The translations under genes and the position numbers were made by a program. Source: an uncultured Gemmatimonadales bacterium (GTDB lineage Bacteria > Gemmatimonadota > Gemmatimonadetes > Gemmatimonadales > GWC2-71-9). From it: a stretch of DNA of 64,000 nt. The notes beneath the pieces were generated by a model. That model did no database searches. It saw only the letters and a program-made list of their open reading frames with translations, and was not told the DNA's origin. The stretch spans positions 256,001 to 320,000 of the forward strand of contig CAWCVB010000006.1 in assembly GCA_963798915.1 (NCBI GenBank), in the 5' to 3' direction. Positions 33,278 to 52,310 of this stretch are shown piece after piece; the first letter of the stretch is position 1, and each line of letters starts with the position of its first letter.

Positions 33278-33306
33278 ACGCTAAACACTGTGGCCCGGCT
33301 GGTCAA
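33278..33306 (-). promoter_or_regulatory. Putative sigma70 promoter (near-leaderless)
   Basis: TTGACC-N17-TAGCGT, 9 nt before ATG 33268. Confidence 0.55.
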
Positions 33307-34174
33307 GTTCATCGTCGTCTGGAGGCGCTGGCCAGCCGATATCAAGGGCGGCGCGCCGAGGCCCATCCAGGACCCGGCGGATCCACGAGGCGATGACAAC
33401 CGCCACGGCAACCAGCAACCAGAGGCCGCCCAGCGTCAGCCATCCCAGCACGCCGTAGCGACGGCGCACGTCCCGCTGCCAAGCCACTCCGAACTGGCCC
33501 GGCGTGAGTCCGGTCGTCCGCCGGAGCGCCGTATCGAACGGCTCCCCGGAGGCCAGCAAGGTCAACAATGGCTCCAGCGAGTGCTCCGGGTGACGCCGGG
33601 CCAGGTCCATCACAGCGGTCATGGCCAGTCCATAGGCAAGCGATGCGTCGGCCTCGGTTCCCTGCAGGCCGCGGTTCAGGTTGTCGAGGTCCGGGATGCG
33701 CCCGCGCAGGACGGCGAGGTTGATGCCAACCGCATCCATTCGGCTCCACTCACCAGCCGCGTAGGCGGCGTAGCCTTCGTCGAACCAGCGGGGAACGCTC
33801 GAATGGATGGCGCGGCGCAGCGCCAGGTGCGCCAGCTCGTGTCTCAGCGTGGCTTCCGTCTGGCCCGCGTCGGCGCGGATCAGAATGGTGCGGCTGGATG
33901 GCAGCGCGACACCCGCGCCCCACGACGGTGCACGCCCGCTGGTATAGCGCTGCATGGTCGACTGGTCCGGCACCACGATCAGGCGGATCGGTCCCGGGTC
34001 GCGCCTGCCCAGGCCGGGCCAGGTGTGGACATGATCCGCCTCGTCGCCAAGCTGGAGGGCCAGCGGCATCTCGCGCGCCGTCGCGACCACCGTGACCTGA
34101 CCGACCTGTGCTGCCTGGGGCTGAGGCGGCGCCTGAACGAACGGGCGAAGAGCGATGAGCGCGAGTGCGCTCAG
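33281..34174 (-). CDS. Membrane-anchored gluzincin (peptidase MA-like) metalloprotease; start uncertain (CTG 34174 proposed)
   Basis: HELAH followed by PRWFDEGYA; C-terminal TM; N-terminal hydrophobic stretch starts at a CTGA overlap. Confidence 0.8.
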   Translation of the reverse strand: MSALALIALRPFVQAPPQPQAAQVGQVTVVATAREMPLALQLGDEADHVHTWPGLGRRDPGPIRLIVVPDQSTMQRYTSGRAPSWGAGVALPSSRTILIRADAGQTEATLRHELAHLALRRAIHSSVPRWFDEGYAAYAAGEWSRMDAVGINLAVLRGRIPDLDNLNRGLQGTEADASLAYGLAMTAVMDLARRHPEHSLEPLLTLLASGEPFDTALRRTTGLTPGQFGVAWQRDVRRRYGVLGWLTLGGLWLLVAVAVVIASWIRRVLDGPRRAALDIGWPAPPDDDELDQPGHSV

Positions 34175-35055
34175 GAACGCGCGGAACGCGGGATGGTCCC
34201 TCCGGCAGCGGCGGTGTCCAGCATGTCCTTGCACCGCTTGCCCCACTGATTGAATCGGTTGGCGCGATGGCCCTCGGTCCACGACTCGGTGGCGCCCTCG
34301 CGATCGCCGGAAAGCCACTGCGCGCGTCCCAGCTCGTACCACGCCTCGATCAGGTTGGGTCCCAACTGGAGGGTCTTGCGGAAGAAGGCCTGGGCGTCCT
34401 CGAACATCTCGCGCTCGAGATAGACCAGGCCCAGGTAGTAGTGGGCGTAGAGCGTGGCCTTCCGGTCGTTGTTCAGCCGAATGGCCTTGGAAAGATGTTC
34501 GATGGCTTCGCCGAAGATCCGCTTCTTGAGGCAGATGTACCCGACATTGATCCGGGCCAGCGCATTGGCAGGTTCTGCCATCAGCACCCGCGAGAATGTC
34601 GCCAGCGCCTCGTCATAGCGCTCGTCGAGCATCTCGGCCCAGCCCAGGAGGGACTGCGCCTGCGTGTCACCCGGTGCGAGTTCCAGGGCACGCTCGAGCG
34701 CCTGCACGGCGCCGGCATGGTCCCCCAGCGAAATCAGGCTCCAGCCCTTTTCAATAAACGTCGACGCACCGATATGATCCGAGTGCACCGCGGGCCTGGC
34801 TCCCGAGAACTGCGGTGGTTGTGCCCCATCCTCCGTCGCGCCTGAGGCGACCTGTTTGTAGCGCTCAACCAGCGCGCGGAGGTCGTCCTTCAGCCGGCTG
34901 AGCTCGCCCAGGGCCGCGTCAACCTCTCGGTACAGCGAAATAATGTCGCGCTTGAGGCGCTCGCGAGTGTCCACCCCGCCAGCCTCGCCAAGCCGCGCCT
35001 CCACCTCGCGATAGCGGTCACGATACATCGCGGCCGGGCCAGGTCGATCGGTCAC
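34171..35055 (-). CDS. Coiled-coil plus TPR protein
   Basis: N-terminal heptad helix, then about five TPRs (ALELAPGD, VLMAEPAN, TLQLGPNL). Confidence 0.85.
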   Translation of the reverse strand: MTDRPGPAAMYRDRYREVEARLGEAGGVDTRERLKRDIISLYREVDAALGELSRLKDDLRALVERYKQVASGATEDGAQPPQFSGARPAVHSDHIGASTFIEKGWSLISLGDHAGAVQALERALELAPGDTQAQSLLGWAEMLDERYDEALATFSRVLMAEPANALARINVGYICLKKRIFGEAIEHLSKAIRLNNDRKATLYAHYYLGLVYLEREMFEDAQAFFRKTLQLGPNLIEAWYELGRAQWLSGDREGATESWTEGHRANRFNQWGKRCKDMLDTAAAGGTIPRSARS

Positions 35056-35513
35056 GTTCCGGCCCGCTGCAAGGTGACGCGTTCGTCGCCGCTGAAGAGC
35101 CGACGGGCGTTGAGCAGCACGACGGTCTGCTCTCCGATATGCGCAACCCCGCTGATGTACTCGGCGGCGAGGCCGCGCACCAGCGGCGGCGGCGCCGCAA
35201 TCACTGATGCGTCCACCCGCACGACCTCCCGCACCTGATCGACCACCACGCCAATTCGATCGCGCTCGACTGTGATCACGATGACGCGGGTGTCCTCGCC
35301 CAGCTCCGCCGGTACGTCGAGGCGCTTGCGCAGGTCCACCACCGGAATGACCCCGTCTTCGAAGGGGAGGACACCCTCGAGAAAGGGAGGGGCCTTTGGC
35401 ACGGTCGAGGGCCGCTCGTATCGAAGGATCCGCTCGACCTGCAGGATGTCAAACCCGAAGTCCTGCTCACCGACACGGAAAGTCACCAGTTGCACGTCAT
35501 CGCCGGAGATCAT
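35052..35513 (-). CDS. cheW: Chemotaxis adaptor CheW
   Basis: LVTFRVGEQDFGFDILQVERI, VPKAPPFLEGV, IPVVDLRKRL, IGVVVDQV. Confidence 0.93.
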   Translation of the reverse strand: MISGDDVQLVTFRVGEQDFGFDILQVERILRYERPSTVPKAPPFLEGVLPFEDGVIPVVDLRKRLDVPAELGEDTRVIVITVERDRIGVVVDQVREVVRVDASVIAAPPPLVRGLAAEYISGVAHIGEQTVVLLNARRLFSGDERVTLQRAGT

Positions 35514-35932
35514 AGCCGACCCATTTCAAAGAGGCGCGCGCTCAACGCCGCAAGATCGAGCAGGGGGAGCAATTCCTTGCCATGGCGAACCAACGCCGCC
35601 GCCCACGGTACGGCTCGATCAGGGGGCACGGGTAGCGACTCGCCACGCTGTACGACTTCGGCATCATCGACTTCGAGGCACAGGCGCCTGCCCTCGACAG
35701 TCACCACAATGGCGGTGGAGGCCACGTCGGCAGGACACCGCTGCCCCGCCAGCAATGCCGCCAGATGAACCACGGGCAGGACCGCGCCCCGCATGGTCGC
35801 GACTCCGCGCACCGCCGGCTCGAGGCTGGGGACCGCAGCAACCGCACCCGGCACGGTCACCGCTTCCAGATGCTCCACCGGAAGCCCGATGGCGCGACCG
35901 CCAGCGTGCACCACCAGGAACTGCGTCATCAT
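35510..35932 (-). CDS. cheW: CheW-like adaptor (divergent)
   Basis: [36 protein letters not shown]. Confidence 0.85.
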
Positions 35933-37005
35933 GAAGCCAGGCGGGTGAGACTGGCGTCGAGGACGGCCGCAATCCGCTCCACCGCAAGCACGTAATCCGC
36001 GCCACCGCTCAACCGCGCCGCATTGGGCATGCCATCAATGACAGCGCTGGCCCTGTCCTGCGCAATCCCGATACCGCCCGCGTCATGAATGGCCCGCAAG
36101 CCTGCAGCGCCGTCCCGCCCCAGCCCGGTCAGCACGACGCCAATCGCAGCGGGGCCGAAATACTCCGCCAGCGTGGTGAAGAGCGGATCGGCCGCCGGTC
36201 GCACGCCCCAGACGGTGGGCGACTGATCGAGGGCAATGACCGGACCACCGTCTCCACTGCGCACCAGCATATGGTAGTCGCCCGGCGCCACATACGCCGT
36301 ATCCTCCAGCACCGGGCTTCCCTGCTCGGCTTCGACCACGGTGTAGCGGCTCTGTGTGGCGAGGCGCTCGGCCAGACTGCGCGTGAACTTGGGCGGCATG
36401 TGCTGCACGATCAGGATGGCCGCGTGACGGCCTCGAGTCAGGCGCGGGACGATCTCCGCCAATGCTCGTGGCCCGCCGGTGGAGGCGGCGATGCCCACGG
36501 CACATCGGGCCCGACCGGGCAGGGTGGTCATCGTCGACGGAGGCATCGCCGGTCGTATCGGGCGAGCCAGCATCGGCAGGCGGAGGATCTCAGCTTCGCG
36601 GGCCGCATAGAGGGCCGCAAGCACCCGCCGGCCGAATCGGCCGATGGCCTCCTGGCCTCGGTCCTCGTCCTTCGCGACAAGATCCACTGCACCGAGTTCG
36701 AGCGCTCGAATGGCCGCCGCGGTGCCGGCGCCGGCGTACGCGCTGACGACAACGATGGGCCGGGGCGACTCGGACATGATGTAGCCGATGGCGCCCAATC
36801 CATCGAGTTCCGGCATCTCCAGGTCCATCAGCACGCAGTCGGGTTCGAGGGCATGGACCTTCTCAAGCGCATCCAACCCGTTCCGCGCCGTTCCGCAGAC
36901 CCGGAACGCTTCTGATCCATTGACCACATCGGTCAGCAGCCGCCGAAAAAACGGGCTATCGTCCGCAATGAGGACGCTGGCCGGTTCAGAGTTGCGTGGT
37001 GCCAT
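35929..37005 (-). CDS. cheB: Protein-glutamate methylesterase CheB (REC plus esterase)
   Basis: [37 protein letters not shown]. Confidence 0.96.
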
Positions 37006-37471
37006 GTGACACCGAGGTGATTTCCACCCGGCCATCAGCCGCCCAGACACGCACCGTCCGGCCGTAGTCGCCCCCGACCGCTTCACCGATCAGCGGGATA
37101 CCATGCTGGGCCAGGACCTGGCGCGACGCCACCACGTTCCGTTCCCCCATCTGGATGGTGCCGGGCGCCGTCAATGACGCGAACATGCTCGCACCGCCCA
37201 CCAGGCGACCTCCAACACGCCCGGACCGGGCCCCGAGCGATGCCATCCCGCTGAGCAGCGCCGGCACCGCCTTCTGGGGCACCTTGCCAGGGCGGTCATC
37301 GCTTGGTCGCACGAGCGCCGGCGACGGCAGGAGCACGTGCGCGAGCCCGGCCACGTGGGCCACCGGATCGTACAGGATGATGGCGACACAGCTGCCCAGT
37401 CCGATGGTGACGAGCTCGTCATCGAGTCGGCCCACGCGCAGGTCGGCGACCCGCACCACGATGTCGCTCAT
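36986..37471 (-). CDS. cheD: Chemoreceptor glutamine deamidase CheD
   Basis: [33 protein letters not shown]. Confidence 0.96.
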
Positions 37472-38283
37472 TCCCGCCGCCGGTAGATGCGTTCACGGAT
37501 GTCCACCAGGTCGACCAGCTCACGGGCCGGGCCCAGCAGCGTCTCCACCTTGCCGAGCACCAGGATGCCATGTGGTGCAAGGCGCTCCACGAACAGCGAG
37601 AAGACCTGTTCCTGCAGGGGACGATCGAAGTAGATCACCACGTTCCGGCAAACAATCAGCTGATAGGCGGTGGCCAATGGGGTGGCCCGGCTCAGGTCCA
37701 GCTCTGCTACCGTAACGCGTTCGCGAATGGCAGGAACCACCGCGCGACCTGCCGCGTCAGGCACCGTATACCGATCCTGCAAATCCGCCGGCAGATCCTG
37801 GAACGCCTCCACACGGTAGACGCCCGCCCGCGCGCGCTCCATGGATGCGCGATCGACATCGGTCGCATGAATGGCTGCGCGACTGCTCCACTCCGGCCGG
37901 CCAGCGAGACGGCACTGTTCGGCGAACAGCATTGCCATCGTATACGGTTCATCGCCGGAGGCGCAGCCGGCACTCCACGCCAGCAGTCGCCCGGCATTCG
38001 CCTCCCACAGCGCCGGCAGAAACCGGCCCGCGAGTGCACTCCAGGTCTCGGGATTCCGGTAGAAGCGCGTCACATTGATGGTGAGCGCGTCCTTGAGGCG
38101 ATCCAACTCCTCCGGCTCACGCTCGACCAGCGCCCGATATTCGTCGTAGTCGCGGCTGCCACACGCGCGCATCCGCACCGCCACCCGGCGACGGATGCAC
38201 TTGTCCTTATAGGCATCGAGGGTCATCCCCACGGCTGATGAAACGGACCCAAGCAGCCGGGCGAAGGCCGCGTCGTCGGTCAT
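37468..38283 (-). CDS. cheR: Chemotaxis methyltransferase CheR
   Basis: TINVTRFYRN, WSAGCASGDEPYT, ATDVD, CRNVVIYF, LGKVETL. Confidence 0.96.
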   Translation of the reverse strand: MTDDAAFARLLGSVSSAVGMTLDAYKDKCIRRRVAVRMRACGSRDYDEYRALVEREPEELDRLKDALTINVTRFYRNPETWSALAGRFLPALWEANAGRLLAWSAGCASGDEPYTMAMLFAEQCRLAGRPEWSSRAAIHATDVDRASMERARAGVYRVEAFQDLPADLQDRYTVPDAAGRAVVPAIRERVTVAELDLSRATPLATAYQLIVCRNVVIYFDRPLQEQVFSLFVERLAPHGILVLGKVETLLGPARELVDLVDIRERIYRRRE

Positions 38284-39902
38284 CACGAGGCAGCATCCAG
38301 CATGTCGAGGTTGGCCCGGGCGAGCTGATGCCCCGGATTGAGTTCCGCCGCACGTTGCCAGCAGCTGCGAGCCTGGTCGGTTTCGCGCCGCTTGAAGGCG
38401 ATGTTCCCCAGCTTGAAATAGAGGTCATCGCCGAGCTGGGGATCGAGCTTGGCCGCACGCTCATACATGCTCGCGGCCTCGTCGTAGCGGCCTGAGCGGT
38501 AGCACAAGTCACCCAGGTTCTTGGAAATCTGCGGCACGCCAGGCTCATCGGATAACGCTGCCCGGAGCAGCAGTTCCGCGCCGGCTACATCGCCATCGTG
38601 CTCCAGCATGACGGCGAGGTTGTTGCGCAGGATGGCGCTCGCGGGATGGGTCCGAACCCCTTCCTGGGCCACACTGAGGGCTGCGTCGGCACGATCGGCC
38701 GCGGCTGCAGCAAGCGACTGCGCCCAGTACCAGATCGCCGGCACGATGCCGTCCTTCAGCAACTCACGGGCGCGCGCCAGCCGGCTCTGGGCGGCTTCGG
38801 TGTCGCCGCGCCGCAATGCCAATACGCCCCAGCCCAGCTGGATCCGTGCATCTTCGCGGGCCCGCCCCGCCGCGTCCGCGAACACGCGCTCGGCCTCATC
38901 GAGCTGTCCGAGCTGCTCGAGTGCGATGGCCAGATCATGGAGCACCACCGGCCGGGGGCCGCCCTTCTCCAGGCAGTCGCGGAACGCCTGGGCGGCCTCG
39001 CTCCAGCGCGCCTGCCGCGACGCGATGAGTCCCAGGTGAAAGGGTGCCGCCGCCTCGGCCGGTCGCAGGTCGGCGACGCGCCGAAACTCACGCTCCGCTT
39101 CATCGAGCATTCCGGTCCGAAAGAACGCGACGCCCAGGTTGCGGTGCTCTTCCACCCGCGAGTCACTCGCGCGAGGCGCTGCGGCGGCACGCGACGAACC
39201 GGTGCGATGGGCGAAGCCGGCAGCGAGCAGGCCATAAATGGCCTTGCCGACCTGGAATTCCACCAGGCCGGATTCCTCCATGACCTGCTGCACATCACGG
39301 GTGCCGTCGAGAAGCGGCACGATCCGTTCCTGCTCGGCGCTGAGCGTCACATCGCTGTCGGCCACTCGCGATGGGTCAGCACTGAAGATGAGATCGAAGG
39401 TGGGAATCTTCTTCGCGATGAGACTCCACTCATCCACCCGTCGTGCCCCCTCGAGCAGGAGGCTCTCGGGATTGATGGAGACCAGGACATCCTGTTCCTC
39501 CGGACGCTCACCGGCCTCGAAGTTGAAGGTGCCGCTGCTCCAGGTGAACAGGAAATACACCGCTTCCTCGATTTGCAGCGCCACGAACTCCCGAAGCGCG
39601 TCCGGCGTGATGGCGCCGAGTTCGAGCAGTATCTGGCCAATGCGACGTTCCGGGCTGGCCGCCTGCTGGTCGATGGCTTGCTGCAGCACGTCCGCTGAGA
39701 GCCTGCCGTTGCGGACCAGCAGGTCCCCAAGCCGGTCACGCCGATTGACGATCGAGGCGAAGACGATGCGGCCGTCCTCGAAGTAGATGTAGCCGAAGTT
39801 CTGCCGGTCAGCCACGGCCAGGCAGCCGGAGCGTCGACCCAGCGCGAGCAGCTGGATGACATCCGGAAGACTCGCCTCGGACAGGCTTCCCTTGATGGCC
39901 AT
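38283..39902 (-). CDS. DUF4388 (PATAN-like) protein with MshEN-like motifs, wHTH-like segment and TPRs
   Basis: KGSLSEASLPDVIQLL...SGCL...IYFEDGRIVFA, tandem RLG/RIG 24-mers, WSSGTFNF, LLLEGARRVDEW, then TPRs. Confidence 0.85.
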   Translation of the reverse strand: MAIKGSLSEASLPDVIQLLALGRRSGCLAVADRQNFGYIYFEDGRIVFASIVNRRDRLGDLLVRNGRLSADVLQQAIDQQAASPERRIGQILLELGAITPDALREFVALQIEEAVYFLFTWSSGTFNFEAGERPEEQDVLVSINPESLLLEGARRVDEWSLIAKKIPTFDLIFSADPSRVADSDVTLSAEQERIVPLLDGTRDVQQVMEESGLVEFQVGKAIYGLLAAGFAHRTGSSRAAAAPRASDSRVEEHRNLGVAFFRTGMLDEAEREFRRVADLRPAEAAAPFHLGLIASRQARWSEAAQAFRDCLEKGGPRPVVLHDLAIALEQLGQLDEAERVFADAAGRAREDARIQLGWGVLALRRGDTEAAQSRLARARELLKDGIVPAIWYWAQSLAAAAADRADAALSVAQEGVRTHPASAILRNNLAVMLEHDGDVAGAELLLRAALSDEPGVPQISKNLGDLCYRSGRYDEAASMYERAAKLDPQLGDDLYFKLGNIAFKRRETDQARSCWQRAAELNPGHQLARANLDMLDAAS

Positions 39903-41875
39903 CAGCGCCAGTCCTCGATCAACCGTGACGCGGGATCAGGCCAGTCCCCGATCATCTTCTCGCGATTCTGGGCAATCCCGGCCCCGCCATGGACCACGCC
40001 GCTGGATCGCACCATGGTCGAGCGGCGGCTGGATCCGCGTGTGCTCCCTCCCTCCAGCGCTTCGCGCGCAAGCAGCGCCGTCGGAGGCACACCGCGACTC
40101 TCAGCTGCGTGCAGCACCCGCTGCACCAGCCCCAGCGTGCTGCGCATCGAGTCGGCGGGGCGAGCCGCCACATAGGCCGCCAGTTCCGGATCCACCGCGT
40201 CGAGCTTGGCAGCCAGCAGACGTTCGACAGCGCGCTGCCTGAGCTCCCGGTCGGGTGAAGGCAGGTCAGCCACCAGCCCTCCCTCGAAGCGCGTCAGCAG
40301 GCGTGGTTCGATCCCGGACAGGTGGGCCGGCTGCACCCCGGCTGAAAAGACCATCTGACGGCCCTGCTCCTGGAATTCGTTGAACAACAGGAAGAGCTCT
40401 TCCTGGGACCGCTCCTTCCCTGCAAGGAACTGGATGTCATCCAGCAGCAGGGCATCGGCCCGCCGCCACCGGGCGCGCCAGCGCGGAACCGATTCCTGCT
40501 CGATGGCCGCGATCAATTCGTCCACGAACACCTGTGTGCTGGCGCACGCAACCCGCCGGCCACCCGCCGCGATCGCGTTGCCAACAGCATGCAAGAAGTG
40601 GGTCTTGCCATTCCCGCTCGGGCCGGCGATAACCAGCGGATTGTAGCGGGTGCCCGGTTCCTCGATGATGGCGCGAGCTGCCTGTACCGCCATGCGATTG
40701 CCCTGGCCCTCGAGGAAGGTGTCCAGGTTCCAGTGCGGGGAGGGCCCGGGTGGCGGCTCAGCCGCAGCCGCGGCGCGCTCCCGCAGCGCTTCCGCTGCCG
40801 CCAGCTGGTCCGGATTGCGGAGCACGGCGTCGCTGGCCAGGTCCGGTGCGAGATCCGCAACGTCGGCGTGGAGCACCCTGAGCCGTGCGACGTCACGTTC
40901 GAACGCAGCCAGTTCGGACGCCGGGTCCTCGGCCAGTTCCTGGTCGAGCAGCGCCGCCAGCCGGTCAACTCGATAGCCCTCTCCTTCCCAACGCAGCATC
41001 GCCTCGCCTATCCGGCGGCGCCATGACTCAACCTGCTCGGTGACCGTGGCCATGACGTCCTGAAGGAAGTCGGTGAACTCGTCTACCGGACCGGCGCCGA
41101 ACATCTCTCCGGCGACCGCGGGTACCGGCGCGCGCACAGGGCGCCGACCTGCGCTGCTCAGCTGCGCCGACGCCTCGCGGGCTTCCTCCGCGGTGATGGG
41201 AGCATCGCTCACGGCCTGCATCGCCGCGACGCGGTTCAGCGCGCCGAGCAGCTCGCGAACGCTCTCCGGCTCTGGCTCGGCGATGCCCTCCAGCACCGCG
41301 GCGGCCAGCTCCAACTGGCGCTGACCGGCGCGACGATGGAGGATCGCGACGCGCGTCTCGTAGTCGGGTATCCCGATGTCCACGACCAGTCCGCCCCCCA
41401 GCCGCCGCGCCAGGCGTTCATCCAGCGAGGGGATGTCGCCGGGCGGTCGGTCGCTGGCCAGGACCAGCTGGCGGCCGGCGGCGGCCATGGCATCGGTCAC
41501 CCGCAGGAGTTCGGCCTGCATTTCCCTCCGCCCGGCGAGGAACTGCACGTCGTCGAGCAGGAGCAGGTTCACTTCAAGCAATCGCCGGCGGTAGGCATCC
41601 CCACCACCGGACGCGATGGCCGCATGGAACGCCTCCAGGAACTCGTCGAGGGTCAGGTACTCCACCACCAGCTGGGCATTGATGGCGCGCGCGGCGTGGC
41701 CGATGGCGCCAAGGAGATGCGTCTTGCCGAGGCCGGGGCGCGCGTAGACGAACAGGGGGTTGTAGACCGCGCCGGGCGACTCGGCCACGGCGCGTGCCGC
41801 TGTGACGGCGAGCCGGTTCGCGCTGCCGACGACCAGCTCCTCGAACCGGAACTGCGGGGGAAGCTCGGCTGTCAT
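39902..41875 (-). CDS. Protein of two DnaA-type AAA+ domains (no DnaA domain I or IV)
   Basis: Two copies of N-R-x-A...YNPL...GxGKTH...LLLDD[VI]QFLAG...R[LF]xGGLV...[VM]R. Confidence 0.9.
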
Positions 41876-44142: not shown

Positions 44143-45289
44143 GTACCATCCTCGTCGCCTGGCTCAGCAGCCTGGCAGCCTCGCGCATCCTGTTCACCCA
44201 GCCCCCTTGCGCATCTTCATCGGGTGGACGCGCCGGCAGCCTGCTCCATGCGTCCCACGTCTCAATCGCCTCCTCGAAACGGCCATCTCCCGCCAAGGCC
44301 ACACCCAGCAGCCGTCTCGCGGCGGCGTCGGCCGGATCCAGGTCGGCCGCCTGGCGAAAAATGTCCACCGCATCCATGGGCCGCCCGAGTGCCAGCAGGG
44401 CCCGCCCGTGCATCACCAACGTTGCCACCTGCACGCCAGGGGAAGCCTGCCTGGCCTCTTCCACCGCCGCGAGCGCGGCTCGGGCATTGCCGGCGATCAG
44501 ATAGGCGTCGGCTCGCGCCAGCAGTTCGGCGATCTCGCCGCCGACCGCGTCCGGCACCTTTCCCTGTTGCGGATCCTGAAGCAGGATGACTCCTGCCGTG
44601 GCAAGGCCAAACAACGTCCGGGCCACGTCGAAGTCGGACCGGCGAACGGCAGCTGCGAGGTCGCGCACGTTCCGGGTTCCATCCACCGCCGCGAGTACTT
44701 CCCATTCCGCCGGATGGAGATCCATCGGTCCAGCATCGCCTCCCTCAGGCACGACGAGAGAGGGCACCACGTCGAGATGCGGGATCCTGGATTCGATCCG
44801 GCTCCACTCGTCGATGCGGCGTGCGGCTTCCATGAGCAGCGCTTCCGTCGGGATGCGCACCGTCGCCTGCGCCGGCACCGCCTCAAGCGGTGCTTCTGAG
44901 AATGAGAAATACCCCTCGGACCAGCCCATCAGCTCAAAAATGACTTCTTCGACCTGCACCCGCATCTGCCGCTCCAACTCGCGACGCGTGATGGCACCGA
45001 TCTCGACCAGCACGTCTCCGAGGCGCCGTTCATCCCCTGCCTGCTGCATGTCACGTGCGCGATGCAGGTCGGCTTCGGCCAGCTTCCCCATCCGGACCAG
45101 CACCCGTCCCAAGGGGTGGGGATTGCTCTGAATCTCCGCCGCAACGACAGCACCCTTGTCGAAGTAGACCGTCCCGCCATTCTGGCGAAGCTCGGATGTG
45201 ACGCGCAGCATGCCGGTCTTGCGGGCCAGGTCAAGCAGCTGGAACACATCGTGGATCCCGAGCTCGCGCAGCGGGCCTTCAATTGGCAT
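44135..45289 (-). CDS. Second DUF4388 protein with MshEN-like motifs and TPRs
   Basis: EGPLRELGIHDVFQLL...TGML...VYFDKG, PLG/RLG 24-mers, WSEGYFSF, LLMEAARRIDEW. Confidence 0.85.
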   Translation of the reverse strand: MPIEGPLRELGIHDVFQLLDLARKTGMLRVTSELRQNGGTVYFDKGAVVAAEIQSNPHPLGRVLVRMGKLAEADLHRARDMQQAGDERRLGDVLVEIGAITRRELERQMRVQVEEVIFELMGWSEGYFSFSEAPLEAVPAQATVRIPTEALLMEAARRIDEWSRIESRIPHLDVVPSLVVPEGGDAGPMDLHPAEWEVLAAVDGTRNVRDLAAAVRRSDFDVARTLFGLATAGVILLQDPQQGKVPDAVGGEIAELLARADAYLIAGNARAALAAVEEARQASPGVQVATLVMHGRALLALGRPMDAVDIFRQAADLDPADAAARRLLGVALAGDGRFEEAIETWDAWSRLPARPPDEDAQGGWVNRMREAARLLSQATRMVHG

Positions 45290-47975
45290 GGTCAGCGCCT
45301 CCCGCGGTCAGGATATGCTGGAGGTCACGGGCGGATCGCGCCCGGCTCCGCGCAATCGTGGCCAGCTCGGTGGAGGGCCCGAGCTGCACCACGCGCTCCC
45401 ACGCATCCACCGCAGCCGTGAACTGTCGTTCCCGCGCCAACGCGACGCCGCGATAGAAGAGCGCCTCCGTTTGCTCGGGCAGGAAACGAAGGATGCGGGC
45501 AAACGCCTCCAGCCCTTGAGCCGTCCGGCCATCATCGAGGAGGGCCCGCCCCAGCAGCAGCAATGCGTCAAATTCGTAGGGGTCCGCCGAGAGCATGTCG
45601 ACCAGCAGGGCCACGGCGGCCCTGGGCGATTCGGTGCGCCGCGCGAGGTCGGCCCGCCCCAGGGCCGCAACGGTGAACGTTGGCAGCAGATCCAATGCGC
45701 GGCCATAGGCGGCGTTCGCTGCCGTCCAGTTCTCGCGCTGCTCTTCCAAACGGGCCAGCTCCAGCCATACCTGCACCAGTCCCGCATCGACACGGAGGGC
45801 TAACCGGCATGCGTCGAGCGCAGCATCCACGTCACCCAGCTGAGAGCAGATGACAGCCTGCAGCTGGTAGAGTTCCGGTTGACCAGGCGAGACCGCCAGC
45901 GCACTGCGAACGGCCTGCAACGCGCCCTCGAGGTCGTCGCCCGCGAGCCGGGCCTTGCCGAGGGCCGTGAGCACTTCCCCGTCGTCGGCTCGGGCACGCG
46001 CGAGCGACTCCGCAACCGGAATCGCCTCTGCGCCGCGTCCGAGCGCCACCAGCGCACGGACCTCACCCAGCGTTGCGCGCCAATCGTCCAGCCGGACCGA
46101 GCGTGCCTGGCGAAACTGCTCCAGTGCTTCGCCGTGGAGGCCCCGGCGCGCATGGATTTCACCCAGCAAGGCGGCCACGGCGCCGGCGTCGGCGCCTCGA
46201 GCGCGGGCGCGGCCCACCTCGGCATTGGCCAACTCGAGCAATCCCTTGGTCGCGTAGTCCCGCGCCAAGGCAAGTGGATCCTCCTCGGCCGCCAGCTCGG
46301 GTTCGTACGGGACGGTGGTCGTCAATTCGGCGAACAGGTTATCCAGGGTGCCCGACTCGAAATCGAACTCGCCCGCGAGCAATTCCCCACCCACATCGCT
46401 GGTGAGTGGGGGCGCAATGGCAATCGTCGGGTCTTCGTACTGGAGGTCGAGCGCCAGCGTGTACTTCTGGGGGACATAGAACGGCTCCAGCTCGAGCGCG
46501 CGCTTGGTCTCGCGCAGCGCACCGTCGAAATCCCCAAGCTGGCTCATCGTAAAGCTCAGGTTGTAGTGCGCTGACGCCAGCGAATCCTCAGCTTCCACCG
46601 CACGTTGAAACGCCGTGCGGGCTTCGCCATACCGCTTCAGTTCCATCAGGACCAGTCCGACGCCATTCCATGCGATGGCGTTGCGCGGCTCCTCGGCCAG
46701 GGCCGAGCGATAACCTTCCAAGGCGGGCTGCAACTCATGCCGCTGGAAGTGGAGCAATGCCAGATTGAGCCGCACCGTAATGGGAACGTGCGGGCCCCGT
46801 GCGGCGCGCCGGAAGGTTGCGAGCGTCGCCTCCGCGGCCGGATCCTGAGCACGCAGCACGCCGAGATTGTTCCACGCGATCACATAGTCGGGATCGAGGT
46901 CGACGGCACGAAGATACGAAGCCTCAGCGACGTCGCGGTGGCCCAGCTGCTGCAGGCAGACGCCACGCTCGGACCACAGCTTGGGTGACTCGGGAAACTC
47001 GTTCACGAGCTGGTCGTAGAGCTGCAGCGCCGCTGCGAGTTCTCGCCGAAGCAGCTCCACCTCGGCCATGGCCTGCAAGGCGAGGCGCCGATCCTCGCCG
47101 GCATCCAGCGCCAGCCGGTACTCGCGCAGGGCCTCGCTGAAATAGCCCTTCTGGCGAAAGGCCAGGCCGAGATTGAAGTGCGCCAGCGCGGCGTCGGTCA
47201 CCGGTTGCGGCACCGCGCGCGCCTGGCCGCCCGCGCCGTTTCCGCTCGCCCCGTTGCGCTGCAACATGAGGTTGGTCTGCGCGCGCGCCAGCGCCGGATT
47301 CAATTCAATGGCCCGCTTGGCCGCCTGCCGCGCCAGGCCATGCTGGCCCATGTCGCCGTGGACGAAGGCGAGCAGGTAGTGCGCGTCAGCATACTCCGGA
47401 TTCCGGGCCACGGCGCCCTGGAGGGCAGCCAGGGCCGGCTCGTTCAATCCGCGGTTGTAAAGCGTCTCGCCGTAATAGAACAGGGCCACCGAACTGTCGG
47501 GATCGCGGCGACACGCCTCGGCGAACCATTCGGTGGCCTCCTCGACCCGACCCCGCGCCCGCTCGCTGAGCCCCAGTTGCACCAGCACGGCCACATCGTG
47601 CGGGTGCCGCGCGAGCAGCGCCTGAAACTCGTCGGCAGCAGCATCATGCTGGCCCAGCGAGGCGTAGGCGCGGCCGAGCTCCCAGCGCGCGTCTCGCTCG
47701 TCTGGATTGTTCCGGAGGCGACCCTGCAGTTCGGCGACCCGATGGTCGTAATGGCCACTGTCGCGATAGGCAATTTCGAGATTGGTCTGCGCGATGGTCA
47801 TGCGCGAGTCCAGCTCGAGCGCCCGCTGGAAGGCCGCCACCGCTTCGGGAATCAGTCCTTTGTGGTAGTAGAGCACGCCGAGGTTGTTGTGCGCCCCGGC
47901 ATCGGCGGGATCGATGCGCCGCGCGAACGACCGCAGTGCCGACAGGTCGTGTTCGGACAGTACGGGCGCAGGCAT
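45279..47975 (-). CDS. Large cytoplasmic multi-TPR protein (898 aa)
   Basis: Many canonical TPRs (AHNNLGVLY, AHFNLGLAF, AWNNLGVL, AWNGVGLVL, AHYNLSF); no signal peptide or catalytic domain seen. Confidence 0.9.
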   Translation of the reverse strand: MPAPVLSEHDLSALRSFARRIDPADAGAHNNLGVLYYHKGLIPEAVAAFQRALELDSRMTIAQTNLEIAYRDSGHYDHRVAELQGRLRNNPDERDARWELGRAYASLGQHDAAADEFQALLARHPHDVAVLVQLGLSERARGRVEEATEWFAEACRRDPDSSVALFYYGETLYNRGLNEPALAALQGAVARNPEYADAHYLLAFVHGDMGQHGLARQAAKRAIELNPALARAQTNLMLQRNGASGNGAGGQARAVPQPVTDAALAHFNLGLAFRQKGYFSEALREYRLALDAGEDRRLALQAMAEVELLRRELAAALQLYDQLVNEFPESPKLWSERGVCLQQLGHRDVAEASYLRAVDLDPDYVIAWNNLGVLRAQDPAAEATLATFRRAARGPHVPITVRLNLALLHFQRHELQPALEGYRSALAEEPRNAIAWNGVGLVLMELKRYGEARTAFQRAVEAEDSLASAHYNLSFTMSQLGDFDGALRETKRALELEPFYVPQKYTLALDLQYEDPTIAIAPPLTSDVGGELLAGEFDFESGTLDNLFAELTTTVPYEPELAAEEDPLALARDYATKGLLELANAEVGRARARGADAGAVAALLGEIHARRGLHGEALEQFRQARSVRLDDWRATLGEVRALVALGRGAEAIPVAESLARARADDGEVLTALGKARLAGDDLEGALQAVRSALAVSPGQPELYQLQAVICSQLGDVDAALDACRLALRVDAGLVQVWLELARLEEQRENWTAANAAYGRALDLLPTFTVAALGRADLARRTESPRAAVALLVDMLSADPYEFDALLLLGRALLDDGRTAQGLEAFARILRFLPEQTEALFYRGVALARERQFTAAVDAWERVVQLGPSTELATIARSRARSARDLQHILTAGGADHAN

Positions 47976-47984
47976 CTCGACGTC

Positions 47985-48605
47985 CTACGGCAGGCGGATA
48001 GCGTCGAAAATGGCGCGGAGCGAAGGCATGTCCGGCAGGAGGAGGAAGTGCCCGTTGAGGCGCTCGCGCTCCTTCCCGACCTGGAAGGAGGTTTCGACGC
48101 AGAAGACGAACTCGCGTTCCTGGCCAAAATTCAGATAGGTGCTGGTGATGACCGCGGCGCTCTGGTCCACCACCAGGCCCGGCACCGACGGGACCAGCAT
48201 CATGCCCATGAAGTCACTCAGCGCATTCAGGTAGGCGCTGACCAGGATGTTGCCAACCTCCTTGAGGCCGCTCTGCTCCATTTCATGGAATTTGGTGGTG
48301 GCGCCTTCCGCACGGTTGAACAGGATGTCACACAAGCGGCGCGCGGCGTCGTCCGGAAACAGGATGAGCGTCCGGCCCGTGAGGTCACCCATCATCTGCA
48401 TCAGCACGGCGGCCACCACGGCATCGGGAGCGCCGAGCAGGTCGGCCACCTCCTCGAGGGGCCGAACGTTGACCTCCGGTACGCTGATCATGATCGTGCG
48501 GTTGGTCATCTGCGAGAGCGCCGTCGCGGCGTGACCCGCCCCGATGTTGGCAACCTCGCGCAGCGCATCCAGCTGCAGATCCTTGAGCCCGCGGGCGTCT
48601 TCCAT
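47985..48605 (-). CDS. cheC: CheY-P phosphatase CheC
   Basis: DALREVANIGAGHAATALS and SGLKEVGNIL (two ExxN sites). Confidence 0.95.
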   Translation of the reverse strand: MEDARGLKDLQLDALREVANIGAGHAATALSQMTNRTIMISVPEVNVRPLEEVADLLGAPDAVVAAVLMQMMGDLTGRTLILFPDDAARRLCDILFNRAEGATTKFHEMEQSGLKEVGNILVSAYLNALSDFMGMMLVPSVPGLVVDQSAAVITSTYLNFGQEREFVFCVETSFQVGKERERLNGHFLLLPDMPSLRAIFDAIRLP

Positions 48606-48617
48606 GCGGTCCTCGAG

Positions 48618-50459
48618 TCAGACGATCGCAGCGGCGTCGAGAATCAGCGCCGGCGACCCATCTGCCAGAATGGTGGCCCCTCCGAAGAACGTCGGCATCC
48701 CGCGGGGTGCCTCGAAGGGTTCGACAACGATGTCCTGCTGGCCCAGCAGGCGGTCCACGATCAAGGCGGCCCGCCGGTCCCCGACTTCGAGGATGATGCC
48801 CGGCCGCCGTCCGGGCGCCTCACCGCCGACGCGCACCAGCTCGCGGAGATGCACGGTCGGGATGGCGCGGTCGCGCACCACCAGTGCCTGGCGATCGCGC
48901 ACTGCGGTGACGCTCTTCAGGTCGAAATCAACCGTCTCGGCCACATAGGCGATCGGCACCGCATAGCGCTCGTCGCCGACACCGGCGAGCAGCGCACGGA
49001 CAATGGCGAGCGTCAGCGGAACGCGGAGCGCGAAAGTGACACCCGCCCCCTCGCGGGCGCTCACCGAGAGAGTACCACCCAAGGAACGCGCCCGCGTTGC
49101 GGCCACATCCACGCCGACGCCGCGACCTGAGACTCCGCTCACGGCGCCGGCCGTGCTGAACCCAGGCCGGGCAAGCACGCGCAGCAGCAGGTCGTCACTG
49201 AGTTCCTGGACCGCGGAGTCGATCACGCCGTCACGCTTGCCGCGCTGCAACATGGCATCCCGCTCGATGCCCCGGCCATCGTCCATCACCCGGATCACCA
49301 CCGTATTCCGCTCCCGGGCGGCGCTCACCACCACCCGGCCCTCGGCCGGCTTGCCCCGTGCCACTCGTTCGGCCGGCGACTCGAGACCATGGTCCACCGC
49401 ATTCCGGATCAGGTGCAGCAGCGGATCGCCGATTTCGTCGAGCACCGCACGATCCAGCTCTATGCCGCCGCCCTCGCTCTCGAAGCGCGCCTGCTTGCCG
49501 AGATCGCGCGCCAGGTCCCGGACCACCCGGGGAAATCGATCGAAGACCTCGGAGACCGGGCTCATGCGCGCCTGCAACACCTCGGCCTGCAGCTCACCCA
49601 CGAGCCGCGAGACCCGGTCGGCGACTGCCGCCAGTGGCATGTCGTCGCGCCCGGCAGCCAGATCGGCCAGGCGATTGCGGGCCACGACAAGCTCGCCGAC
49701 CTGCTTCATGAGCGCATCGAGGCGGCCGAGGTCGATCCGGATCTGGCGAGGCACCGCCGCCGCTCCAGCCGAGCCGTCGGCCAAACCGTTGCCGACCCGC
49801 ACCTCACTGATATCACCCGCACTCCGGATAGCGGCCTCGACCACGCTCAGATCGGCTCCGCCCCCAATCCGGAACGAGAAGTGGCCGTCGAAGTCGTCCC
49901 GCTCAAAGGCGGCAATACCGGGCCGGATGTCCGACACCGCACCCAGTGCCTCGGCCCGCCGCAGCGCCAGCATCGCCCGCCCACCGCGCAGCGGTGCATC
50001 AGGTCGGACGGCAACGAATACGCGTTGCGAAACAGGCTCCGTCGAGGCGCGCTCGGCAGGGGCGACCTCGCGCCACGCCGCCTGCGCCGCTCGATCCAGG
50101 GCGGCGGCGAGCTCGGCGTCATCGGCGCCGCTGCTCTCGCCACCGGCGCCAGCGCGGCCGACCGCCGCGGTAATGCCATCAACGGCCCCGAACAGAAGCT
50201 GAATGAGGGCCGGTGTAACCGCCACTCGGCCACCGCGGACGGCGTCCAACAGGTTCTCGGTGCGATGGGCCAGTCCTGACACACCCTCGTACCCCATGGT
50301 CGCCGCCATGCCCTTGATCGTGTGGATGGCGCGAAAAAGGCCAGCCACGGGTTCCACGGCTGCCGGATCGCGCTCCCATTCAAGCAGGTACTGATTGCAG
50401 GAGGTGAGATGCTCGCGACTCTCGGCAAGGAAGAGTGCCGCGTACTTGGACAGGTCCAT
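48618..50459 (-). CDS. cheA: Chemotaxis histidine kinase CheA (P1-P2-P3-P4-P5)
   Basis: FRAIHTIKGMAATMG, LLHLIRNAVDHG, DDGRGI, PGFST, SGRGVGVD, PLTLAI, GATILADG; ATG 50459. Confidence 0.97.
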   Translation of the reverse strand: MDLSKYAALFLAESREHLTSCNQYLLEWERDPAAVEPVAGLFRAIHTIKGMAATMGYEGVSGLAHRTENLLDAVRGGRVAVTPALIQLLFGAVDGITAAVGRAGAGGESSGADDAELAAALDRAAQAAWREVAPAERASTEPVSQRVFVAVRPDAPLRGGRAMLALRRAEALGAVSDIRPGIAAFERDDFDGHFSFRIGGGADLSVVEAAIRSAGDISEVRVGNGLADGSAGAAAVPRQIRIDLGRLDALMKQVGELVVARNRLADLAAGRDDMPLAAVADRVSRLVGELQAEVLQARMSPVSEVFDRFPRVVRDLARDLGKQARFESEGGGIELDRAVLDEIGDPLLHLIRNAVDHGLESPAERVARGKPAEGRVVVSAARERNTVVIRVMDDGRGIERDAMLQRGKRDGVIDSAVQELSDDLLLRVLARPGFSTAGAVSGVSGRGVGVDVAATRARSLGGTLSVSAREGAGVTFALRVPLTLAIVRALLAGVGDERYAVPIAYVAETVDFDLKSVTAVRDRQALVVRDRAIPTVHLRELVRVGGEAPGRRPGIILEVGDRRAALIVDRLLGQQDIVVEPFEAPRGMPTFFGGATILADGSPALILDAAAIV

Positions 50460-50463
50460 GGCG

Positions 50464-50826
50464 TCAGCCGAGGACGCGCTGTACGGCCTCGAGGACGCGG
50501 GACGGTTGAAATGGCTTGACCACAAAATCCTTGGCGCCGGCCTGGATCGCCTCCACCACGAGCGCCTGCTGCCCCATGGCGCTGCACATCAGGATCTTGG
50601 CGTCGGGGTCAACCTTGCAGATGGCCCGCACCGCGTCAATTCCACCCATGTCCGGCATGACGATATCCATCGTGACCAGGTCCGGCTTGAGCTGATGGTA
50701 CTTGTCCACCGCCTGCACGCCGCTCTCGGCTTCGCCGACAACCTCGAAGCCCGCCTGGGTCAGGATGTCGCTGATCATGGTACGCATGAAGATGGCATCA
50801 TCGCAGACCAGCACAGTATGACCCAC
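50464..50826 (-). CDS. cheY: Response regulator CheY (Bacillus/Thermotoga-like)
   Basis: VCDDAIFMR, MDIVMP, CSAMGQQALV, FVVKPF. Confidence 0.95.
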   Translation of the reverse strand: MGHTVLVCDDAIFMRTMISDILTQAGFEVVGEAESGVQAVDKYHQLKPDLVTMDIVMPDMGGIDAVRAICKVDPDAKILMCSAMGQQALVVEAIQAGAKDFVVKPFQPSRVLEAVQRVLG

Positions 50827-50857
50827 GCACCACCTCCGTAACGGTCAGATATCTGCG

Positions 50858-51313
50858 TCAGCTCGACGCCACGCGCTCGGATGACAGGACCGGACCGCAC
50901 AGCGCGTCCAGATCAAGAATGACGAAGTGCTCGCCTTCATGCCGCGCGACGGCCCGGACCATCACTGGATCGACGCCTGGCAACTGTTCTCGTGCGGCGA
51001 CTGACGACTCCGGGAGGGAAAAGAAGTCTCGCACCTCACCAACCTCGAGCCCGATCAGTCGCCCCACGACCTGCACGACCAGGATGGCGCCCTCGTCGCC
51101 CTCGCCACGGGGCTGCTGCAGCAACCGGTGCGCGTCCAGCACGGTCAGCAGGCCTCCCCGTACATTGACGAGGCCCGAAACCGCTGATGCCACCCCCGGG
51201 ATCCTCGTTGCCTGAAGGCTCGGGAGGATCTCCCGCACAATCCCTGCCGAGGCCCCGCAAATCAGGGTCCCGACTCGAAACACGACGGCGTGCAATACCG
51301 GAGAGTCAGGCAT
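50858..51313 (-). CDS. cheW: Chemotaxis adaptor CheW
   Basis: VREIL, TRIPGV...GLVNVRGGLLTVLD, IGLEVGEV, ILDL; ATG 51313 overlaps the rluD end. Confidence 0.9.
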   Translation of the reverse strand: MPDSPVLHAVVFRVGTLICGASAGIVREILPSLQATRIPGVASAVSGLVNVRGGLLTVLDAHRLLQQPRGEGDEGAILVVQVVGRLIGLEVGEVRDFFSLPESSVAAREQLPGVDPVMVRAVARHEGEHFVILDLDALCGPVLSSERVASS

Positions 51314-52310
51314 CTCTATTGAAGAACCGAAGATACCGAAGCGGCGCATCCTGAGCAACAAGTTCTGTGTCAGCTGCGAGCCTCAGGGCCGGCATCAGGT
51401 CCGCGGGCCAATCCGCCTGTAGTACGAGCGGTTTACCGCTGGCCGGATGGCGAAATGCCAGAGCGGCCGCATGCAGCGCCTGACGTGGCGTGGCCCGTTC
51501 GATCCGTTCTGCGAGCGGCCGCGCCGCCCCGCTGATCCTCCGGCTCCCCCCTGCCCCGTAGGTGGCATCGCCGACGACCGGATGCCCAATGTGTTCCAGA
51601 TGCACACGAATCTGGTGAGTCCGGCCCGTCTCGAGGTCGATCCGGAGCAGTTCGCAGACCTCGAAGCGACCGATCACCTGAATTTCCGATGCTGCTGCGC
51701 GGCCGTGGGGCGAGACCGCCATTCGCTTCCGGTCAGCCAGTGCCCGGGCGATCGGCTGCTCGATGCGCACGGGCGACTGGGGCAGGTGGCCCCACGCGAG
51801 CGCAGCGTAGGTGCGATGCACCTGTCGCGCAGCAATGGCGCGACTGAGTCGGCGGTGTGACTCGTCAGTTTTTGCGACGATCATGAGCCCGGATGTATCG
51901 CGGTCGAGCCGATGGACGATGCCCGGCCGTCCGGCCGCGCCGCCCGCCAGGGTCAGGCCTCGGGCCACCAGAGCGTTGACCAGCGTGTCATCCCAATGCC
52001 CTGGGGCCGGATGCACCACGAGGCCGGCGGGCTTATTGACCACCGCGAGTGCCTCATCCTCGTATACGATATCGAGTGGAATGTCGGCCGGCGTGAGCCG
52101 GCGCGGCGGCTCAGCATCAGGAAGATCGAGTTCGACGAGATCGCGCCGCTCGAGCACGCGCGACGCGCGCACGGTGGCTCCGTTGACCCGAACCCGCTGC
52201 CCGGCGAGCAGCCGGGCGACCTGGGTTCGGGAAAGCTGCAGCTGGTCGGCCAGGAAGCGGTCGATGCGCTCCGTCACCTCGACCAGAACGCAGAGACCGA
52301 TGGCCGGCAC
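51306..52310 (-). CDS. rluD: 23S rRNA pseudouridine synthase RluD family
   Basis: S4 domain RIDRFLA, VNKPAGLVVHP, HRLDRDTSG, TGRTHQIRVH, QALHA. Confidence 0.93.
   Translation of the reverse strand: MPAIGLCVLVEVTERIDRFLADQLQLSRTQVARLLAGQRVRVNGATVRASRVLERRDLVELDLPDAEPPRRLTPADIPLDIVYEDEALAVVNKPAGLVVHPAPGHWDDTLVNALVARGLTLAGGAAGRPGIVHRLDRDTSGLMIVAKTDESHRRLSRAIAARQVHRTYAALAWGHLPQSPVRIEQPIARALADRKRMAVSPHGRAAASEIQVIGRFEVCELLRIDLETGRTHQIRVHLEHIGHPVVGDATYGAGGSRRISGAARPLAERIERATPRQALHAAALAFRHPASGKPLVLQADWPADLMPALRLAADTELVAQDAPLRYLRFFNRDA
51330..51358 (-). promoter_or_regulatory. Putative sigma70 promoter of the che/mgl operon, inside the rluD 3' end
   Basis: TTGCTC-N17-TATCTT, 16 nt before cheW ATG 51313. 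Confidence 0.5.

Follow-up and report, generated by a model that had tools for sequence, protein, structure and literature searches.

We analysed a window of 64,000 nucleotides (nt) from an uncultured Gemmatimonadales bacterium (GenBank assembly GCA_963798915.1, contig CAWCVB010000006.1, positions 256,001 to 320,000 of the forward strand), in which a string of chemosensory genes encloses genes for tetratricopeptide repeat (TPR) and Roadblock proteins, an MglA GTPase, two DUF4388 (PATAN) proteins, PATANa and PATANb, and a tandem DnaA-type AAA+ protein that we call DnaA2. The source genome is G000 in our labels and is 84.8% complete; L-, G- and P-numbers denote fetched loci, genomes and proteins.

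The gene string at the rluD site

An open reading frame (ORF) and Pfam check recovered 19 ORFs, all on the minus strand from 33281 to 51313/51361, in the order and with the domains that an earlier note on this DNA had claimed (Table 1). With the starts chosen here, 13 of the 18 junctions overlap and the remaining five gaps measure 2, 4, 9, 12 and 31 nt, which bears out the close coupling, with a largest gap of 31 nt, that the note had described. The start of the peptidase gene is uncertain, its sole ATG/GTG/TTG start lying 171 nt within the preceding gene. After it comes a conserved 20th ORF that the note had missed.

Table 1. Genes and features of the string, with window coordinates (aa, amino acids)
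Feature	Position	Strand	Basis or remark
cheW1	50858..51313	-	PF01584; start overlaps rluD stop
cheY, stand-alone receiver, D54 intact	50464..50826	-	PF00072; median 85% identity to relatives
cheA (Hpt-P2-dimer-HATPase-CheW), without receiver domain; H46 and N/G1/F/G2 boxes intact	48618..50459	-	Domains, residue alignment
cheC phosphatase, both E-x-x-N sites	47985..48605	-	PF04509; NF041093 best match, below cut-off
898-aa all-TPR protein, without hydrophobic segment; presumed cytoplasmic scaffold	45279..47975	-	Domain search
PATANa: DUF4388, partly degenerate MshEN insert (first Arg missing), short TPR tail	44135..45289	-	PF14332; NF053729 36.4 bits, cut-off 38
TPR-Roadblock protein	43282..44142	-	TPR and weak PF03259
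Small Roadblock/LC7 protein	42938..43285	-	PF03259
MglB-like Roadblock, conserved amphipathic C-terminal helix	42477..42938	-	38% identity to the genome's canonical MglB
MglA Group 1 GTPase, the genome's second paralogue; R53 and TVPGQ intact	41872..42474	-	E 5.7e-70 to M. xanthus MglA
DnaA2: two DnaA-type AAA+ domains (aa 5-235, 379-606) with a helical linker domain between; without DnaA domain I or IV	39902..41875	-	
DnaA2 motif 1, EFxxFxxD helix, aa 265-283	41027..41083	-	Low confidence in lone model; kept in mini-proteins
DnaA2 helical linker domain, aa 279-371	40763..41041	-	No Pfam match; tandem repeats in other large proteins
DnaA2 motif 2, EKxxWxWP...RxIEE, aa 637-657	39905..39967	-	Kept in mini-proteins
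PATANb: PATAN core, tandem MshEN insert (aa 57-110; window 39573-39734), winged helix, TPR	38283..39902	-	The cluster's most widely kept gene
cheR	37468..38283	-	PF01739, PF03705
cheD, catalytic Cys and His intact	36986..37471	-	PF03975
cheB (receiver and methylesterase), catalytic Ser/His/Asp intact	35929..37005	-	Domains, residues
cheW2	35510..35932	-	PF01584
cheW3	35052..35513	-	PF01584
Coiled-coil/TPR (ccTPR) protein	34171..35055	-	Present in 47/53 loci
HExxH (MA clan) membrane peptidase, start uncertain	33281..34174	-	PF13485; HExxH in 46/46
63-aa hydrophobic ORF, probably a neighbour	33077..33268	-	tblastn E<0.01 in 41/53 loci; no Pfam match

Conservation was examined in 150 evenly sampled genomes of the phylum, each at least 90% complete, plus G000 (151 in total), and in 53 fetched loci, which were chosen by their matches and are not an unbiased set. 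Gene presence in the loci was scored by tblastn, which under-detects short divergent genes, and a few loci stop at contig ends. Two genomes in the tallies, G076 and G114, are flagged as unpublished; no claim depends on either alone. DnaA2 had a match at E<=1e-60 in 100/151 genomes, including 72 of the 74 in its own family. The PATANb profile matched 112/151, and dropping three weak matches (~1e-44, family f12) left 109 carriers. The closest named relatives are metagenome-assembled genomes of Gemmatimonadales. The complete 11-gene core from cheY to PATANb was present in 40 of the 53 loci and all 19 genes were detected in 13. The order was rearranged in none (0/53), the sole apparent violation being one non-orthologous receiver (REC) match, and the che genes flank the insert in fixed order across several families. 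The claim of a single unit kept in relatives was thus upheld.

Genomes without the cluster show scars at the rluD site. In G063 (L130, 4635-6205) rluD is followed by an intact cheY (76% identity) and then by a 45-aa TPR fragment, the remaining operon being gone; G102 has rluD, a cheW fragment and the peptidase gene, G080 has rluD and the peptidase gene, and two more distant genomes have rluD without any cluster gene. Because these scars persist at the same site in cluster-less genomes, the cluster looks old at this position and lost by deletion, which fits the ancestral, vertically kept character claimed for it. A mobile island was rejected on the flat GC content (0.645-0.696 per 2 kb across the window), the fixed site and the deletion scars. 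The peptidase gene follows rluD in the cluster-less loci L131 and L132. We rejected it as a core part because it follows rluD in genomes that lack the remaining genes; the peptidase, counted in the earlier note as part of the operon, is probably an old neighbour and not a component.

The upstream flank holds the housekeeping genes ileS, a dksA/traR-like gene, lspA and rluD, the first three mutually overlapping, and the rluD stop overlaps the likely cheW1 start by 8 nt. A scan of 32800-52600 for sigma-70-like promoters gave 0 sites (shuffle mean 1.6), so that the promoter proposed at the 5' end was not recovered; given this result and the run of rluD into cheW1, the string may be transcribed from upstream of cheW1. 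The downstream flank comprises tRNA-Val, a 591-aa TPR gene, tRNA-Asp and then the dcw cluster (window 9686-31070), which is on the same strand, begins ~2.3 kb from the string and holds rsmH, ftsI, ftsW, murG, ftsQ and then ftsA and ftsZ (the last two by eye). The housekeeping flanks are therefore as claimed, and no integrase or transposase was found among the subset of the window's ORFs that was scanned.

PATANb, DnaA2 and the retained core

DnaA2 consists of two AAA+ units like domain III of DnaA (predicted model, pLDDT 88.6). The fold matches domain III of Bacillus subtilis DnaA (8BV3) with a TM-score of 0.92 and a root-mean-square deviation (rmsd) of 1.7 Å (Z 31 in a second structural comparison), and the protein passes TIGR00362 in two matched stretches (441.6 against a cut-off of 343.9). 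The Walker A Lys is present in 50/51 aligned rows for unit 1 and 47/51 for unit 2, the first Walker B Asp likewise in 50 and 47, and a sensor-I-type Asp in 47/51 and 17/51, respectively. No match to domain IV (PF08299) or domain I (PF11638) was obtained, and the first AAA+ domain begins at residue 5. The helix-turn-helix motif of domain IV and an Hda-type clamp motif, sought with what we take to be the N-terminal clamp-binding pattern of Hda, were found in 0/50 DnaA2 homologues, and the Hda model TIGR03420 gave 169 bits, below its cut-off of 195. A canonical dnaA lies elsewhere in G000, on another contig. A true second initiator was rejected on the missing domains I and IV, the canonical dnaA and the loss of the AAA+ domains in viable lineages; public records label the DnaA2-type protein 'DnaA/Hda family protein'. 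A scan of a genome collection with a single protein returned only Gemmatimonadota-labelled contigs, canonical dnaA and one 6-kb contig in a Limnocylindria-labelled bin (75% identical), which is likely misbinned.

Relatives form a series in which the protein has two AAA+ units, one (L031, L105) or none. In six genomes from three genera (G025, G029, G071, G089, G091 and G131), all that is left of DnaA2 is a mini-ORF of ~60-75 aa, immediately ahead of PATANb, with the two motifs of Table 1; motif 2 was found in 6/6 by hidden Markov model (HMM), and motif 1 in 4/6 by HMM and in 2/6 by eye. Both motifs lie in or beside low-confidence segments of the lone DnaA2 model. Across these natural deletions each of the Che, Mgl, receptor and ATPase parts is seen to go on its own, whilst PATANb stays with the two motifs. 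G132 keeps only dnaA2-PATANb(-peptidase), without che or mgl; G131 keeps mglA-mini-PATANb-cheR-ccTPR, without cheA or cheY; in G089 and G091 the Che core-mini-PATANb is left and the operon Mgl arm is gone. The common denominator of every version seen is PATANb with the two motifs. Because this motif-only remnant stays by PATANb while other parts are lost, we infer that the two together form the hub of the system, with the motifs binding PATANb. This suggests that DnaA2 works mainly as an adaptor on PATANb.

A c-di-GMP input had been proposed for the string, and the second DUF4388 protein, PATANb, passes the curated motif cut-off (NF053729, 48.5 against 38). MshEN is described in the part of PMC5013675 available to us as two 24-residue RLG...Q motifs in tandem. 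PATANb has such a tandem with a 6-residue spacer, R57 is present in 51/53 rows and the domain superposes on 5HTL at 1.5 Å over 56 columns; the insert of PATANa scores under the cut-off. G000 has nine GGDEF matches. PATANb is, on this evidence, a probable c-di-GMP sensor. Its winged helix aligns to the tail of archaeal CheF (7OD9; Z 5.5, rmsd 2.9 Å, 57 residues) in a tie with dozens of generic winged helices, and we treat a CheY docking site there as a lead and not as evidence. The PATAN core and the DnaA2 linker gave no clear structural match, both having been barely tested. Some relatives have additional stand-alone PATAN-MshEN genes outside the operon (L127:8858-9547, L129:531-1220).

The linker of DnaA2 also occurs in other proteins, its profile giving 501 matches among 1.84 billion representatives, with many tandem copies in some proteins. 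An unannotated repeat family, perhaps archaeal, comprises large proteins (P0039-P0094, P0189-P0219) with up to 24 copies at a spacing of ~98 aa, and the repeats stand alone or with a DnaA-type AAA+ domain and a zinc ribbon, DUF835 or a KaiC-like ATPase. P0172 and P0176 join the linker to another N-terminal domain (with a weak Fe-hydrogenase-like Pfam match in P0172); P0176 has a motif-2-like stretch by eye, and both may use the same docking site. DnaA-type domains are further found in ~1900-aa MshEN-DnaA-coiled coil-DnaA proteins (P0204-P0211) and, in a protein named Thermoplasmata (P0220), fused to a pilus-type ATPase. In a quick tree of 68 domains, each DnaA2 unit formed its own clade (SH-aLRT 98) and the deep branches were open. 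Because this tree leaves them apart from DnaA2, the MshEN and pilus-ATPase fusions may be independent recruitments. The linker gave no usable ESM Atlas match and no plasmid match. Of two metagenome scans for the repeat-DnaA family, one was empty and one gave 80 loci without a linker, PATAN, Mgl, CheC or CheD match. The idea that the repeat-DnaA N-terminus is a PATAN domain was dropped (profile comparison with PATANb, probability 0.2%), and P0218, a DnaA2-PATAN fusion that lacks a contig and has deleted ends, is probably misassembled and was left out.

The chemosensory and GTPase arms

The catalytic residues of CheA, CheY, CheC, CheB and CheD are conserved in the locus alignments, and the identity of CheY given in Table 1 is a median over 50 locus matches, one of them a non-orthologous receiver. 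The best models were CheA_Halo, CheC_Thtogales and a Firmicutes/Thermotoga-type CheD, all below their cut-offs; against NCBIfam, CheA gave 415 bits with CheA_Halo and 292 bits with PRK10547, neither reaching its cut-off. The F1 chemosensory class is marked by a CheA with a P2 domain, by CheC, CheD, CheR and CheB, and by 44H receptors, whilst the hallmarks of Frz are a CheA-receiver hybrid kinase and a cytoplasmic methyl-accepting chemotaxis protein (MCP) in the operon. Here, the F1 genes are all present, with P2 in CheA. As to the flagellar motor, the target of that class, no FliG was found in G000 or in 80/109 carriers. Membership of Frz was rejected, since CheA has no receiver domain and no MCP gene lies inside the operon. 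The Che proteins thus resemble the F1/Dif type rather than Frz: the CheC/CheD-type pathway that had been claimed stood, its catalytic residues being intact, and a likeness to Frz did not. CheY has 5/5 of the primary specificity residues reported for Myxococcus xanthus DifD (F13, M14, M17, D20 and I21) and V56, V90 and I94 of the secondary set (PMC4671073, in part).

G000 carries only this Che system, with three receptor loci elsewhere in the genome. One receptor (on contig C2) aligns to 2CH7 at equal length (260-558 against 8-306; one of the three loci tested), which we take to indicate a 44H receptor of class F1. At L123 (G000:C1 ~51900-53200) the receptor gene is split by a frameshift in the signalling domain, a pseudogene or an assembly error. 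L118:720-3593 and L119:121-2202 are receptor loci and candidate inputs, one receptor coming after a periplasmic binding-protein gene and the other having several membrane segments and a GAF domain. Away from the operon, a fused CheB-CheR-type protein of ~940 aa (G000:C2 ~200600-203400) is encoded beside a Ser/Thr kinase-like gene.

The loci have frequently lost genes of the receptor side, cheR, cheD, cheB and cheW among them. G060 (99% complete, 5 contigs) still has cheY-cheA-cheC together with the entire Mgl/PATAN/DnaA2 block; its CheA has no P5, and searches of that genome found no MCP, CheW, CheD or FliG. Since the kinase core and the block are kept there together, the phosphorelay would serve the Mgl/PATAN/DnaA2 block. 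The same truncation occurs in G116, from another family; the truncated CheA of L048 and L113, in two families, stops right after the ATP-binding domain (no P5) with the catalytic boxes intact. In other trimmed loci it is P2 that CheA lacks.

The operon MglA has the features of Group 1, for which the portion of PMC4316618 available describes an intrinsic Arg beside the G2 Thr and a G3 motif TVPGQ: R53, T54 and TVPGQ are present, the Arg in 47/53 rows and the Gln in 50/53. Three Roadblock proteins are its neighbours. The MglB-like one adjoins mglA and is a Roadblock protein, scoring 40 bits with NF052242 against a cut-off of 200. A canonical mglB-mglA pair lies at L122 (G000:C6:456260-457447), where the adjacent genes resemble recR and ybaB by eye; the MglA of this pair is 48% identical to the operon MglA and contains an insertion of ~25 aa, and most relatives have two MglA matches. 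Judged by its motifs, the operon MglA is an intact second copy.

The Mgl arm is dispensable in some lineages. G071, G089 and G091 have no operon MglA, no Roadblock was detected in L033-L035 and L042, and for genus g27 (L107-L112) the three rows shown have an operon MglA that lacks R53 and the G3 motif. The g27 loci have also lost cheR, cheD, cheB and two cheW genes, with DnaA2 and PATANb intact. Where the operon Mgl arm is lost, the canonical mglBA pair could stand in. As PATANb and the two motifs outlast both MglA and the AAA+ domains in some lineages, the GTPase is, by this pattern, an arm of the system and not its centre. Of the embedded MglAB that had been claimed, the intact Group 1 MglA was confirmed, with an MglB-like Roadblock beside it; this MglA is a second paralogue, dispensable in some lineages.

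Output, alternative explanations and known systems

FliG was found in only 29/109 carriers, and flagella are on this gene content not the obligatory output; in the 80/109 carriers without FliG the output is not tied to them. Of 39 flagellated genomes we examined 25, of which 23 carry the operon CheA, and 14 of these 23 have another CheA. Pili are compatible with the distribution: G000 has pilB-pilT-pilC and pilM, PilM occurs in 105/109 carriers, and in G063, which has lost the operon, PilM and PilT orthologues were not found either. A Synechocystis PATAN domain alone is described as binding PilB1 and PilC and reversing motility (bioRxiv 2021.06.11.447907, in part).

The mechanism that we propose is as follows. 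An F1/Dif-like pathway, taking its input from a small number of orphan 44H-type receptors or, in certain lineages, from none, would set the level of CheY~P, with CheC resetting it. The MshEN insert of PATANb, in which the motif is present, would read c-di-GMP. From their co-retention with PATANb, motifs 1 and 2 would anchor DnaA2 on that protein, with the AAA+ domains adding an optional nucleotide-dependent oligomerisation. The second MglA with its three Roadblock partners and the TPR scaffolds would add a GTP/GDP spatial switch. By analogy, the PATAN domain would contact the type IVa pilus motor (PilB/PilC) and set the pole or timing of pilus extension. We hold as evenly balanced the overall reading that CheY~P, c-di-GMP and MglA converge on a cytoplasmic hub of PATANb and the DnaA2 motifs that controls type IV pili or polarity, most likely steering surface pili rather than flagella or DNA replication. 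The fusion, in other proteins, of DnaA-type AAA+ domains to a pilus-type ATPase or to MshEN counts in its favour.

Several observations weigh against this reading. The MshEN insert is absent from PATANb in five of the six mini-protein genomes, so a c-di-GMP input is not universal. The six genomes all belong to one family and may not be independent, and the final EE codons of motif 2 are also the ribosome-binding site of PATANb, which may inflate the conservation of these codons (E639 and W645 are not part of the site). In the quick tree, DnaA2 and the fused forms do not group together. PilM also occurs in 37/42 non-carriers and its profile does not single out pili; G168 (94% complete, 240 contigs) has the operon, and no PilM or PilT orthologue was found in it. 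Finally, 9/23 flagellated carriers show no other CheA at E<=1e-30.

These nine carriers are what would be expected if the Che genes were an F1-type flagellar chemotaxis system, serving flagella to this day in genomes that have them and repurposed or decaying where flagella are missing, with the Mgl/PATAN/DnaA2 block as a separate insert. The Halobacteria- and Thermotoga-type models and structures closest to CheA, CheC and CheD, the 44H-like receptor and the frequent loss of cheR, cheD, cheB and cheW agree with it as well. We nevertheless consider it quite improbable, as CheY keeps its median identity although most carriers lack FliG, another CheA is present in most of the flagellated carriers, and G060 keeps an intact kinase core with no receptors or flagella found. 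It is also unlikely that the pathway is instead a Dif-like sensor of pilus or surface state that controls exopolysaccharide (EPS), biofilm or development and not pilus position. That view would account for the five DifD residues in CheY, for the c-di-GMP motif and for the gene order W-Y-A-C, which presumably matches difC-D-E-G; such residues are, however, generally known from CheY of the Bacillus/Thermotoga type, the operon encodes no DifA-like receptor, the loci showed no EPS gene, and MglA, the Roadblocks and DnaA2 would be left unexplained. According to the part of PMC4671073 consulted, Dif itself includes a CheC homologue, lies downstream of pili and regulates EPS.

The string could also link the cell cycle to polarity and chemosensory state if DnaA2 co-oligomerised with the true initiator or bound single-stranded DNA and so tied in replication or division. 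The domain III fold, the Walker A/B and arginine positions kept in both AAA+ domains in most of the 51 rows, the winged helix of PATANb and the dcw cluster downstream would suit such a role. Domain 2 also keeps positions equivalent to B. subtilis I190/R202/K222, which we assume to act in single-stranded DNA binding. With the helix-turn-helix and clamp motifs missing from all 50 homologues, a canonical dnaA on another contig, viable lineages lacking one or both AAA+ domains and others lacking the whole cluster, we think this link improbable. Very unlikely, in our view, is a co-regulated string with no shared machine, in which two or three modules are joined only by read-through from ileS-lspA-rluD. 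The coupling to housekeeping genes, the passenger-like peptidase and the loss of each arm alone would follow from it; the splitting of the che genes around the insert in fixed order in several families, and a motif-only remnant that stays beside PATANb whichever arm is lost, would not.

The string might represent an undescribed class of chemosensory output, which we consider possible but doubtful. In it, the DnaA AAA+ domain would have been recruited as a signalling ATPase and adaptor, in bacteria and, separately or jointly, in archaeal-type proteins; it would couple F1-type CheY~P, c-di-GMP and a Ras-like GTPase on a PATAN hub, would be able to operate with a CheA that has no receptor, and might connect pole identity or pilus assembly with the cell cycle via the true DnaA. 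A chemosensory route to an MglA switch and a pilus motor is known only partly, from scattered Myxococcus genes; here a soil lineage that is abundant and little studied has a candidate chain encoded in a single string, for which natural deletions name a minimal core of PATANb and a peptide of ~70 aa. Of wider interest are an ATPase of DnaA fold whose role is likely non-replicative and which is routinely annotated as DnaA or Hda, a repeat domain without annotation that other large proteins share, and CheA kinases that have been kept although they lack the domain for receptor coupling.

The earlier note knew of no description of this architecture, and a full-text literature search covering few subscription journals likewise found none of the operon, returning only one supplementary-table row. 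In that row (PMC4316618, Wuichet and Sogaard-Andersen), Gemmatimonas aurantiaca GAU_1409 is given as 'PATAN>MglA>-PATAN>', beside a separate MglB>MglA pair, with the gene between MglA and PATAN unnamed. The main text of that paper, as far as available, places PATAN genes near some mglA genes, and 'DnaA', 'TPR', 'CheA' and 'chemota' do not occur in that text; PMC11580455 and PMC12448109 mention PATAN, in the parts available, only in passing. The string is real, conserved and apparently undescribed as a system; its parts are of known kinds, and one protein family, at its hub, is new.

Among known systems, M. xanthus Frz-MglA/MglB also combines a chemosensory pathway with a Group 1 MglA and Roadblock partners in a pilus-bearing cell. 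It differs from the present string, which has a stand-alone CheA without receiver domain, CheC and CheD, no operon MCP, a second MglA paralogue in the same string and, in DnaA2, a protein without Frz counterpart; in characterised Group 1 systems mglA is not near its partner genes (PMC4316618, in part). M. xanthus Dif shares CheW, CheY, CheA, the CheC phosphatase and the primary DifD residues, whereas here CheR, CheB, CheD and the Mgl/PATAN/DnaA2 insert are present and an operon MCP like DifA is not. Cyanobacterial PatA-type (PATAN-REC) proteins have, in the sources as partly seen, DUF4388/PATAN with a helical insert and are encoded with chemosensory genes; here PATAN is fused to a winged helix and TPR without REC, CheY is separate and the insert passes the c-di-GMP motif cut-off. 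DnaA2 shares the domain III fold and nucleotide motifs with the DnaA/Hda clade and departs from it in its two AAA+ domains, new linker, lack of domains I and IV and of the clamp motif, and reducibility to a motif-only mini-protein. In archaea, a CheY of similar type reaches the archaellum motor through the adaptor CheF and not FliM (PMC9126983, in part), but the match of the PATANb winged helix to CheF is no better than to generic winged helices, and a CheF homologue was not searched for. In the actinobacterial conservon, a membrane histidine kinase, CvnA, is paired with a Group 2 GTPase lacking the intrinsic Arg (PMC4316618, in part), whereas here the intrinsic Arg is present and the kinase is CheA.

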